Assembly (NCBI GenBank): GCA_048881705.1
Contig: JBHLSH010000095.1
Coordinates: 1 to 11,475, forward strand
DNA length: 11,475 bases
Origin: Candidatus Heimdallarchaeota archaeon
Lineage (GTDB): Archaea > Asgardarchaeota > Heimdallarchaeia > Hodarchaeales > Hodarchaeaceae
Direction: 5' to 3'
Position 1 is the first letter of the stretch; the number at the start of each line of letters is the position of its first letter. Shown here piece by piece: positions 5,357 to 9,508 of this stretch. The position numbers and the translations under genes are program-made. A model generated the notes under the pieces. It did not search any database, was not told where the DNA came from, and saw only the letters and a list, made by a program, of their open reading frames with translations.

Positions 5357-6589
5357 ATGGCTGGATCTTCGATTGAATCTCTTATCGGGATTCGAGGATT
5401 CTCAACCCCAACTATAATTGGCATGGGAGGAGTGATTAGGCAGCATTTTTCCGATTTTATAGTTCGAGAAATATTGCCTAATGGTTCCCCAATTTTTGAT
5501 GGATCAAAAATTGGATTTGGAGCTATTGGTGGACTATATGTTCATTGTCTTCTCCAAAAATCGGGATTAGATACCTTTACTGCCATTAGAAAGATCAGCA
5601 ATTGTCTGAAAGTTTCTGAAAGGGATTTTGGATATGCTGGATTAAAAGATGCGGAAGCAGTTACGTACCAAAGAATCTCCATTTGGAACATCGCGATTGA
5701 TCGTATGATGGCTATAGATTTACCTCAGATTAGGTTATTTAATCCAGTACGACAAAGATTTGCCGTTAAGATTGGGGATCTGGCAGGGAACCATTTCGAA
5801 ATAACCATACGAAAGATTCAGAGGAACTGGAATTCTCTTATGTGGGATGGATTCATAAGGTCCATTTCATCACGTGGTATATTGAATTATTTCATGGCCC
5901 AACGATTTGGATCACGCCGCCCTATACTTCATCTGATTGGACGTTTTCTGATTCAAAAGAGATATGCAGAGGTGATAAGTGCATATTTGGGATATACTAG
6001 TTTATTAGAGAATCCAAGAATTACGGAATTACGAAAGAAATGGTTACAGAATCGAAAAGAAGGCGAAGAGATAAGAGATAAGTTTATGTTCCCCAATTCA
6101 TATCATATCGAAAATATTATGCTCAGAGGTTTAAAGAGGAGGTTACCTGCAAGAATTATCATTGAAAACCTTCCCCACCCGTTTCTTCGATTAGCAATTT
6201 CCGCATACCAATCCTATCTCTACAATCTAGTTCTTAGCTATCTAAACAAATCTAATATCGTTGCGAAAAACACTCTTATTCCTTTGGTAGGTTATCAAAG
6301 TCCTAGACATAAACATTCATTCTCTGAACTAGTATGGAATACCATGAATGAGATTTTAGAGGATGAGGCAGTTGAATTTGATTGTTTTCGGCAAATAGAA
6401 TTACCATGGCTGCGTTCAAAAGGATCAAAACGCAAGGCAGTGGTATATCCAACCGATTTTAAACGATTCAAGTTAACTGGTTCAGCAATAAAGGTAACAT
6501 TTTCCCTTCCCAAAGGATCCTATGGAACAGCCGTTATGAGGGAATTATTGAAAACCCAAAGCGATCTTGAAATGGGTCATTCAGGGTAG
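5357..6589 (+). CDS. truD: tRNA pseudouridine(13) synthase TruD/Pus7 family
   Basis: SDFIVREI, GYAGLKD (catalytic Asp) AEAVTYQRIS, GDLAGNHFEITIR, NYFMAQRFG, SAYQSYLYN, FSLPKGSYGTAVMRE. Starts 2 nt after the rpl11 stop. Its 3' end overlaps the convergent gene by 13 nt. Confidence 0.93.
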   Translation: MAGSSIESLIGIRGFSTPTIIGMGGVIRQHFSDFIVREILPNGSPIFDGSKIGFGAIGGLYVHCLLQKSGLDTFTAIRKISNCLKVSERDFGYAGLKDAEAVTYQRISIWNIAIDRMMAIDLPQIRLFNPVRQRFAVKIGDLAGNHFEITIRKIQRNWNSLMWDGFIRSISSRGILNYFMAQRFGSRRPILHLIGRFLIQKRYAEVISAYLGYTSLLENPRITELRKKWLQNRKEGEEIRDKFMFPNSYHIENIMLRGLKRRLPARIIIENLPHPFLRLAISAYQSYLYNLVLSYLNKSNIVAKNTLIPLVGYQSPRHKHSFSELVWNTMNEILEDEAVEFDCFRQIELPWLRSKGSKRKAVVYPTDFKRFKLTGSAIKVTFSLPKGSYGTAVMRELLKTQSDLEMGHSG

Positions 6590-6981
6590 AAGGTATTTTT
6601 CTCTATTCTTCCGTTAAGCGAGCCAGTTTTTATAAGGGTCTGAATAGCCTTTTCAACAGAGGTAGATGAAATTCCTTTTATCTCAATTTGATCTATCGCC
6701 GTTGGTTCTCGGATTAAAGAAACAGCTTGGAGAAGAGTTTCCTTTTTTGACATCCCTGAGCCTATCTCATCACCTTTGATTTTTTTCAAAGAGGCCTTAA
6801 TGGATGCACCGCAAGTTGGGCACCGGAAACTTCCCATAATAGTCAGTGTCACACGTCCTTCTTTATCTGGCATGGGACTGACTAGCTGCCAGGTCTTACT
6901 AGGTGGTGTCTCGGTTGGGTTGATGGTGGTATCACACTTTTTACAGACAATCGCTTTGCTACGCTTTTTCTTTGGAGGCAT
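6577..6981 (-). CDS. Zinc-ribbon protein with Cren7-like N-terminal domain and C-terminal PCI-like winged helix (putative DNA-binding/chromatin protein)
   Basis: CKKC and CPTC pairs bracket PSKTWQLVSPMPDKEGRVTLTIMGSF. C-terminus SVEKAIQTLIKTGSLNGRIEKNTFY is winged-helix-like. Start set at ATG 6981 (GGGAG 7 nt upstream) rather than the track's GTG 6996. The CDS is solid; the family call is by eye. Confidence 0.7.
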   Translation of the reverse strand: MPPKKKRSKAIVCKKCDTTINPTETPPSKTWQLVSPMPDKEGRVTLTIMGSFRCPTCGASIKASLKKIKGDEIGSGMSKKETLLQAVSLIREPTAIDQIEIKGISSTSVEKAIQTLIKTGSLNGRIEKNTFYPE

Positions 6982-7014
6982 GTGAAATTCTCCCACAAAA
7001 CACGATAGAGATTT

Positions 7015-8035: not shown

Positions 8036-9508
8036 TTAAGCTTTACGAACAATTTTTTTTGCTTCTAATGCATAATATAAGACTTCGGCCACGGATCTAT
8101 CCTTGGTCCGGCTGTCTTGACGCAATCGAGCAACACGTTTAAAACGGTTAATCTCTTCCTGAGCTCGTCGTGCCTCAATGTAAAGGCCTTCTCGTTGAGC
8201 GGTCTCTAGAACTTGCTCAATTTCAGTGAAGTCCGTTTCTCCCTCCAAGGTAATTTTTAACATGGCATTCACCATCGAGGCTCTTACATATCCTCGTAGG
8301 TGATCGGTGTCTTTCGTAATCTGTATTGCTTCTTCTATCAATTCTTGGGCTGTCCCCAAAAATGTAATATCAAAATAGATCCGATATCGATATATCGAAA
8401 TGATTGCTAGAGAAATGAGGGCGCCATAAAGGTCAGAGATCCGTGCACGGTCTTTTCGACGTAGAATATAGTTATAAAGTTCTTCAGCTCGAGCTAAATT
8501 TAGTTTGGTTAACTCCAAATTTCCCTTGTCTCCTGCAATGGCCATACGGCCCCATGGTAGGGATTTAAAGTCAAAAGATTGGCTAGATTCCACATTAGCT
8601 TGACGAAGGATGCGTTCCAGTTCTGCTATTAGGGTTGTTACTTGATTCAAATCTCCTAGTTCAAGGAAAAGGTCACAAAATCTTGATAGATGTCCAAAAC
8701 GATCAGAAAGAGGGATTATATTTTCGTTTGTTTTTAGTAGAGTCTCAAAATCGCCGTAATACTTGGCTAGAACTTCAATAGGTTTTTCACCCTCTTCTGA
8801 AAGAGATACAAGTTGTGATTCTACATCTGCAATTGACACAAGGACTTCAAGGAGTTTTCGTTCATTACTCAAGTATTCAAAAATCTGAAAAGCGATCTCA
8901 TAATTCCGACGAGCTTCCTTTAGATTACCTAGACGTAGAAAGCACTCTCCAATTCCATGATGTATCTGTGCAATGTAATATTTGTCATTTTCTTCAATAG
9001 CGTACTCAAGTGCCTTTTGGAATTCTTTAAAGATCGAATCGAAGCGGGATTCTCCGCGTTGAATCGACCGTTTCCCATGCCTGAAAATAACGGTCTTTAG
9101 AATCTTTTTCTTCTCTCCCTCCGATAACTGGGTTTCTGCGATTTCACGTGCCTCCTGAAAACTCGCTTGAGCTATTTCAGGAACATTGGTGGATTGAGCA
9201 AGCTCGAGAAGAGCGTTAACAATTCCCTTGTGATAATGTAATACTCTTGCGTTTTCTAGATTCCGATTTAAGTCGATCTGTTGATTACTAAAGTTTTTTC
9301 CTTCCCAAACGCGCTGGAACATTGCCAGATTCGTGAGGGCATCAATTTCAGCAAAACGGTCTTGACGGTCTTCTGCTTGGCCTCTCACAAAATACCAAAT
9401 TTCCGCAGCTCGGATTTCGTTCCCATGAATCCACTCATTCCACGCCATATCAAGTTGTTCAGTTAACAGTTCTGACCTCGTGGTCATGAATTCATCCGTC
9501 CCAGACAT
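8036..9508 (-). CDS. Tetratricopeptide-repeat-like alpha-solenoid protein, function unknown
   Basis: 490 aa, predicted all-helical. Clearest repeat: YIAQIHHGIGECFLRLGNLKEARRNYEIAFQIFEYLSNERKLLEVLVSIADVESQL. Weaker repeats elsewhere (EIDALTNLAMF, GIVNALLELA, LELGDLNQV). No catalytic motif recognised. Starts 2 nt after the tiaS stop; second possible ATG at 9487. Confidence 0.75.
   Translation of the reverse strand: MSGTDEFMTTRSELLTEQLDMAWNEWIHGNEIRAAEIWYFVRGQAEDRQDRFAEIDALTNLAMFQRVWEGKNFSNQQIDLNRNLENARVLHYHKGIVNALLELAQSTNVPEIAQASFQEAREIAETQLSEGEKKKILKTVIFRHGKRSIQRGESRFDSIFKEFQKALEYAIEENDKYYIAQIHHGIGECFLRLGNLKEARRNYEIAFQIFEYLSNERKLLEVLVSIADVESQLVSLSEEGEKPIEVLAKYYGDFETLLKTNENIIPLSDRFGHLSRFCDLFLELGDLNQVTTLIAELERILRQANVESSQSFDFKSLPWGRMAIAGDKGNLELTKLNLARAEELYNYILRRKDRARISDLYGALISLAIISIYRYRIYFDITFLGTAQELIEEAIQITKDTDHLRGYVRASMVNAMLKITLEGETDFTEIEQVLETAQREGLYIEARRAQEEINRFKRVARLRQDSRTKDRSVAEVLYYALEAKKIVRKA

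Follow-up and report, generated by a model that had tools for sequence, protein, structure and literature searches.

A Cren7-like zinc ribbon joined to a PCI-like winged helix in a conserved protein of Heimdall-group archaea

The window analysed here, a stretch of 11,475 nucleotides from a Candidatus Heimdallarchaeota archaeon (contig JBHLSH010000095.1), encodes on its minus strand a small protein in which a Cren7-like zinc ribbon is followed by a PCI-like winged helix. The gene is very probably a two-domain form of the zinc-binding 'Cren7Znr' family of Kaur, Iyer, Subramanian and Aravind (2018, Sci Rep 8:6196; PMC5906684), the two families being equated by published description rather than by accession. 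As to its function, we lean slightly towards a DNA-anchoring adaptor that would serve as an accessory nucleoid factor. The relevant features are the following, in window coordinates:

6577..6981, minus strand: whole gene, 134 codons and a TGA stop (ORF; 81 homologues)
6952..6981, minus strand: Lys/Arg-rich N-terminal tail MPPKKKRSKA, predicted to be disordered (pLDDT about 52-55)
6772..6951, minus strand: Cren7-like zinc ribbon, residues 11-70 (predicted fold, profile comparison)
6934..6945, minus strand: zinc knuckle 1, C13-K-K-C16, at the Cren7 beta1/beta2 turn (invariant Cys; hhalign register)
6883..6897, minus strand: K29-T-W31-Q-L33 on strand beta3, opposite Cren7 K24-x-W26-x-L28 in Sulfolobus numbering (alignment)
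6862..6879, minus strand: family-specific loop S-P-M-P-D39-K with an invariant Asp (alignment)
6811..6822, minus strand: zinc knuckle 2, C54-P-T-C57, at the Cren7 beta4/beta5 turn (S/D-P-E-T-G) (hhalign, conservation)
6751..6771, minus strand: flexible linker DEIGSGM, residues 71-77 (pLDDT <50 at residues 74-77)
6580..6750, minus strand: PCI-like winged helix, residues 78-134, H-H-H-beta-beta (predicted structure)
6982..7014, minus strand: 33-nt spacer between the eL34 stop and the ATG; GGGAG lies 8 nt ahead of the latter (sequence)

The 6577-6981 ORF is a real conserved gene. It runs on the minus strand from an ATG at 6981 to a stop codon at 6577-6579 and specifies a product of 134 aa; an in-frame GTG at 6996, upstream of this ATG, is unused in the homologues, all of which begin with MPPKK or MSPP. 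The sequence strings that the earlier note had quoted from this ORF are all present at the expected codons (CKKC at 6934-6945, KTWQL at 6883-6897, SPMPDK at 6862-6879 and CPTC at 6811-6822), as is the C-terminal string EKAIQTLIKTGSLNGRIEKNTFYPE. A word-indexed search recovered 81 homologues (E<=0.01, 48-95% identity) of full length and the same size, all from Asgard metagenome bins, and an exhaustive phmmer search of 1.8 billion representatives returned 34 clusters only, which indicates that the family of the 134-aa protein is compact. Eight residues are invariant among 26 diverse full-length members (C13, C16, W31, D39, G42, T45, C54 and C57), and the four cysteines are preserved in every sequence of both sets compared (26/26 and 38/38). 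The whole protein is small and basic (pI 9.6), residues 1-72 carry a net charge of +9 with a pI of 9.8, and the basic N-terminal tail is found in every family member, being longer in some of them. Its structure is predicted with moderate confidence (pLDDT 72).

Sequence searches link the head to a large set of crenarchaeal proteins. A single-sequence phmmer comparison relates it to a Fervidicoccus protein with an E-value of 3e-14, and a profile search yields 527 matches with E-values down to 1e-35, a range that covers the proteins of Sulfolobus, Pyrodictium, Staphylothermus and Hyperthermus. These head homologues of about 100-110 aa occur in Sulfolobus, Saccharolobus, Pyrodictium, Hyperthermus, Staphylothermus, Ignisphaera, Fervidicoccus and many uncultured Thermoproteota, the head being 40-55% identical to the Sulfolobus, Pyrodictium and Fervidicoccus members. 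As canonical Cren7 co-occurs in 4/5 of the crenarchaeal genomes that carry the zinc-binding relative, the latter is a paralogue of Cren7. Kaur et al. derived Cren7 from a zinc ribbon and described Cys-bearing Cren7 orthologues alongside the paralogous Cren7Znr (for example APE_2454.1), which retains its Cys ligands and extends at the C-terminus into a region bearing a conserved acidic motif; they reported the Cren7 family in Crenarchaeota and Bathyarchaeota only, and predicted a role in cell division for the Cren7Znr family (PMC5906684). The Asgard protein has the four cysteines at the beta1/beta2 and beta4/beta5 turns, significant similarity to the crenarchaeal members that coexist with Cren7, and, in common with Cren7Znr, the Cys4 knuckles and the stretches K-T-W-Q-L-V-S-P-x-P-D and G-R-I-T-I-T-V-M-G. 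It differs in its C-terminus: the tail of the crenarchaeal Cren7Znr proteins is acidic (about 40 aa, pI about 4.3) and closes with I-E-L-D-L-x-D-L, a motif confined to the crenarchaeal rows of the alignment and absent from the Asgard proteins, whereas the latter have a folded 57-aa winged helix where this tail stands. We call the Asgard protein a variant of Cren7Znr because the winged helix takes the place of the acidic motif. The two CxxC pairs to which the earlier note had drawn attention are invariant, and Cys-bearing crenarchaeal relatives are documented (PMC5906684); its view of Cren7 as a crenarchaeal, single-domain protein is, for its part, out of date because Cren7-family domains in multidomain proteins and zinc-binding paralogues were already known.

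The public annotation of these proteins is heterogeneous. UniRef and NCBI name many of the crenarchaeal relatives 'chromatin protein Cren7', a label that NCBI already applies to some Asgard members as well. Near-identical Saccharolobus and Sulfolobus proteins (P0159, P0319-P0327) go under five public names, namely chromatin protein Cren7, eL43 family ribosomal protein, ZPR1-type zinc finger, 3CxxC-type zinc finger and DUF1610 RNA-binding protein, and the annotation of the Cren7Znr-like family is unstable. A search for literature on the Sulfolobus members Q4J919, Q97ZJ1 and Saci_1378 (a locus tag that we inferred) found nothing. A tblastn hint that some Acidilobaceae members reach residue 119 proved spurious, the ORF stopping at 91 aa.

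The relationship of the head to Cren7 proper was assessed through both structure and profiles. Two different aligners returned Cren7 crystal structures as the top PDB structural matches of the predicted head (TM 0.58-0.68, rmsd 2.5-3 A over about 57 residues), which has the five-stranded SH3-like beta-barrel of Cren7. When the family profile was compared by hhalign with that of 31 canonical Cren7 sequences from crenarchaeal genomes, PSKTWQLVSP aligned with PIKVWALAP, CPTCG with SPETG, and CKKC fell at the beta1/beta2 turn, with an E-value of 0.005. Trimmed cores gave an E-value of 0.0011 and a score of 20.2, exceeding 200/200 column shuffles (9.5 +/- 2.1, maximum 19.1), and the reversed profile scored 7.9; the hhalign probability for the head against canonical Cren7 is 7-20% only. 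A Cren7-like core in this very register had been proposed on inspection of the sequence, and the structure searches and the profile comparison both uphold it. The head is not a canonical Cren7, since the Pfam model PF11520 (gathering score 25 bits), against which the earlier note had suggested checking it, gave no match at E<=10, whether the protein was scanned by hmmscan or the whole genome in six frames; the controls, S. acidocaldarius and four crenarchaeal genomes, scored 85-98 bits. The crenarchaeal members named 'Cren7' lack a PF11520 match too, Pfam and NCBIfam returned nothing above threshold for the window protein or ten relatives, and by sequence no solved chain in the PDB belongs to the family. 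The apparent best PDB sequence matches, designed Kelch 'SAKe' proteins and Keap1, were rejected as spurious because they sum weak tW-lv-P-m strand-turn matches over the Kelch blades with a per-domain E >100; two very long multi-stretch phmmer matches (P0111 and P0114) are the same summed Kelch-type artefact.

The most conserved residues of the head coincide with the minor-groove contact sites of Cren7, namely K29, W31 and L33 on beta3, T45, T47 and M49 on beta4, and K/R62 on beta5. Across 38 sequences K29 is kept in 35/38 and W31 in 38/38, position 33 is L, M, V or I in 35/38, and position 62 is K or R in 32/38. The alignment would make K29 and W31 the counterparts of Cren7 K24 and W26, and L33 that of L28, the residue that intercalates and kinks the DNA by about 50 degrees in Cren7 (PMC5042384). 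K-x-W-x-L on beta3, a basic residue on beta5 and a basic N-terminal tail are common to both. However, canonical Cren7 (PF11520; Sso6901; PDB 3KXT, 3LWH, 6A2I), a very abundant stand-alone chromatin protein, lacks a zinc site and a second domain, and the Asgard head has Thr on beta4 where Cren7 has the hydrophobic residues Val and Ile. Further, compared with Cren7, where the beta3/beta4 loop contacts DNA, that loop has five additional residues in the Asgard head and contains S-P-x-P-D with an invariant Asp and two Pro, which is unusual for a DNA-contact loop; the ligand or the binding mode may therefore differ from that of Cren7. DNA binding through the Cren7 face is a prediction that might equally hold or fail.

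The C-terminal domain is predicted to adopt a winged helix-turn-helix fold, with three helices followed by a beta-hairpin wing. In a per-member Pfam scan of 26 members PCI was the commonest match (10 members, best E-value 1.4e-6), along with E3_UFM1_ligase and MCM5_C (5 members each) and DDRGK (3 members), and the winged helices nearest to it are those of PCI, DDRGK1 and UFL1. It is likened to the PCI-type winged helices of CSN, eIF3 and proteasome-lid subunits and of PCID2, and to the related ones of DDRGK1 and UFL1. The winged helix of the window protein itself falls below threshold, with no match to PCI (PF01399, gathering score 22 bits); the PF01399 matches of its relatives are confined to the winged-helix part of the profile (positions about 27-73 of 84). 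As the predicted structure has no helical repeats ahead of the winged helix, the domain is PCI-like rather than a PCI domain. A PCI-like C-terminal winged helix had been suggested earlier from a residue pattern, and the Pfam scans of relatives and the structure matches bear this out. The domain carries a net charge of +1 in the window protein and of -4 to +4 across the family, with a median pI of 6.5.

A survey of 201 genomes sampled across the phylum found a strong full-length match in 61 of them. In the class of the window, the Heimdall-group, the two-domain form is present as a single copy in 42/45 sampled genomes, and it also occurs in several other Asgard families; named records place it in Heimdall-, Hod-, Njord-, Borr-, Sif-, Kari- and Hermodarchaeota bins. 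Four large Asgard families either have nothing or match weakly, in unrelated longer proteins, to the winged-helix half alone. A related PCI-like winged helix is thus found again in larger Asgard proteins: such winged-helix-only profile matches (E-values of 1e-4 to 1e-6, for instance G052:C25:25930-26088 and G045:C36:78996-79151, and similar places) lie within open frames with lengths of about 500 aa and about 790-800 aa. In a tree of the head built from 63 columns, a single branch (support 70/96, 77% of bootstrap trees) separates the two-domain from the single-domain forms, which is compatible with one domain exchange as far as such thin data go. Three two-domain homologues of 31-38% identity, the winged helix included (L033, L083 and L084), are titled 'uncultured Nitrososphaerota archaeon', and the fusion may extend beyond the Asgard archaea or these bins may be mislabelled. 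The phyletic survey proposed in the earlier note thus recovers the fusion throughout most of the class and in some other Asgard lineages. Its further claim of a new architecture stands for the pairing of domains: in the literature searched we found no paper on a fusion to a PCI-like winged helix or on a near-universal presence in the Heimdall-group, and none combining Cren7, 'zinc ribbon' and 'winged helix'. It does not stand for the head family and its link to Cren7, which were published in 2018 (PMC5906684).

The window is a translation-related gene cluster, comprising uL10, FtsY, prefoldin, eL20, eIF6, eL31, eL39, uL1, uL11 and TruD, followed by the Cren7-like gene, eL34, an EMC3-like protein, a TPR protein, TiaS and DHS. 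The Cren7-like gene follows eL34 on the same strand after a gap of 33 nt, too short for a separate promoter, so the two are likely to be co-transcribed. Its 3' end overlaps that of the convergent TruD gene on the plus strand by 13 nt (6577-6589), leaving no room for separate terminators.

This setting raises the possibility, which we consider improbable, of an RNA- or ribosome-associated zinc-ribbon protein, whose head would sit on rRNA or tRNA and whose winged helix would contact the large subunit or a translation factor. Such a role would also agree with the weak sequence matches of the head to eL42 and eL43, with relatives named 'RNA-binding Zn-ribbon protein involved in translation' and 'eL43 family', with the eukaryotic DDRGK1 and UFL1 winged helices that act on the 60S subunit (according to PDB titles), and with one distant relative whose gene, after Orc1/Cdc6 and RFC, again adjoins uL1-eL31-eIF6. 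However, the order eL34, Cren7-like gene, TruD, uL11 is kept in 21 loci, all of them at least 66% identical to the query, and is found in none of the more distant loci (31-46% identity) nor in the crenarchaeal loci. Other distant loci have unknown genes as neighbours, and in Acidilobaceae and Desulfurococcales the gene lies between an MscS-like gene and GMP synthase; taken together, the distant Asgard and crenarchaeal neighbours are mutually unrelated (an unknown 250-330 aa protein, a small membrane protein, a DEAD-box helicase with DUF5814, TrkA, the MscS-like protein, GMP synthase and an M17 peptidase). As the distant loci have these other contexts, the ribosomal neighbourhood reflects synteny among close relatives rather than a functional signal. 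The location downstream of eL34, which the earlier note had stressed, is therefore true of the window and conserved among close relatives only, and we rejected gene context as a functional clue, since it points to no partner. Moreover, the eL42 and eL43 matches are limited to the CxxC knuckles, with TM values of 0.3-0.4 that lie below those for Cren7, and no family match was found in the solved chains of archaeal ribosomes and RNA polymerases, including those of Sulfolobus and Pyrobaculum, which counts weakly against a stoichiometric ribosomal or polymerase role. Since eL14 often follows eL34, we also considered the Cren7-like gene as an eL14 replacement, and rejected this on finding an eL14-like match elsewhere in the genome. 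In S. islandicus (CP001400.1, L001:5001-5330) some 2 kb separate a family member from the cell-division operon cdvA-cdvB-cdvC; on either side of this member is a small unannotated ORF (102 and 141 aa), and the three are seemingly co-transcribed.

Archaeal transcription factors such as TFE and TFB commonly pair a zinc ribbon with a winged helix, which suggests another reading, to our mind also improbable, as a sequence-specific regulator whose winged helix would read an operator and whose zinc ribbon would be a structural or dimerisation module merely resembling Cren7. Single members do match HTH_24, HTH_11, MarR, GntR, DeoR and Lrp/AsnC-type models. Against this, the gene is single-copy and housekeeping-like in its presence across 42/45 genomes of the class, the compared loci lack a conserved divergent target gene, and the winged helix, with its median pI of 6.5, is not basic. 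Furthermore, both the structure comparison and Pfam match it best to PCI-type protein-interaction winged helices, and conservation is strongest in the zinc-ribbon head rather than in the recognition helix. Very unlikely is a major chromatin protein that coats the genome of Heimdall-group archaea as Cren7 does that of Sulfolobus: the Cren7-like predicted fold with K-x-W-x-L kept, the small size and basic pI, and the probable co-transcription with a ribosomal protein gene, which would suggest high expression, are consistent with it, but the same genome has seven histone-fold matches and one Alba, making a bulk chromatin role unlikely, and the crenarchaeal orthologous family coexists with canonical Cren7, so that there is no replacement. 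The label 'chromatin protein' offered in the earlier note is unsupported on the same grounds, and on account of a winged helix that is not basic.

In the DNA-anchoring adaptor that we favour, the Lys-rich tail and the Cys4-stabilised beta-domain would together form a strongly basic nucleic-acid-binding head, which would bind duplex DNA with no sequence specificity via the face that Cren7 uses, L33 possibly kinking the DNA. The flexible linker would connect this head to the near-neutral PCI-type winged helix. Since the latter is not basic, and by analogy with the winged helices of PCI proteins, DDRGK1 and UFL1, its probable ligand is a protein partner and not DNA. The acidic tail of the crenarchaeal proteins may have an equivalent docking role. 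The protein as a whole would in this way act as a DNA-to-protein adaptor and not as a bulk chromatin protein.

Cren7-type proteins are treated as a hallmark of the histone-poor Crenarchaeota. With a zinc-bound relative that Heimdallarchaeia carry almost universally, in single copy and beside histones, the superfamily would reach into the closest archaeal relatives of eukaryotes, and the zinc-binding paralogue would then look like the older and more widespread form. It is conceivable, if on balance unlikely, that the head is an ancient DNA anchor older than the TACK/Asgard split, and that the Heimdall lineage swapped the acidic tail for a PCI-type winged helix, the head holding DNA while the winged helix recruits a segregation, division or replication machine. 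If this were true, the closest archaeal relatives of eukaryotes would tether DNA by a non-histone factor whose building module also serves in the eukaryotic PCI and UFL1/DDRGK1 complexes. The Sulfolobus member (Q97ZJ1 / Q4J919) belongs to a genetically tractable organism, and a function established there could carry over to >500 archaeal proteins; the orthologue is Q4J919 in S. acidocaldarius and C3MPT8 in S. islandicus.

Some of the neighbours are themselves conserved. A protein of 250-330 aa follows the homologue on the same strand in distant Heimdall-type genomes (L028:4356-5348, L051:4847-5710 and 18 further loci); it has no Pfam match and no PDB sequence match, and is marked by the conserved C-terminal block QEIAGFxGLDxIEFxGxNVxxGLxGLxxRHD. 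The window genome has a weak, unlinked match to it (G000:C22:41271-41576). In one Heimdall clade the Cren7-like gene and the unknown gene, there encoding 285 aa, are separated by a gene for a protein of 74 aa that is predicted to have two membrane helices (L051:4480-4704 and about 10 further loci). In the window, the TPR protein between the EMC3-like gene and TiaS (8036-9508) has 490 aa, and it is present in roughly half of the syntenic loci.
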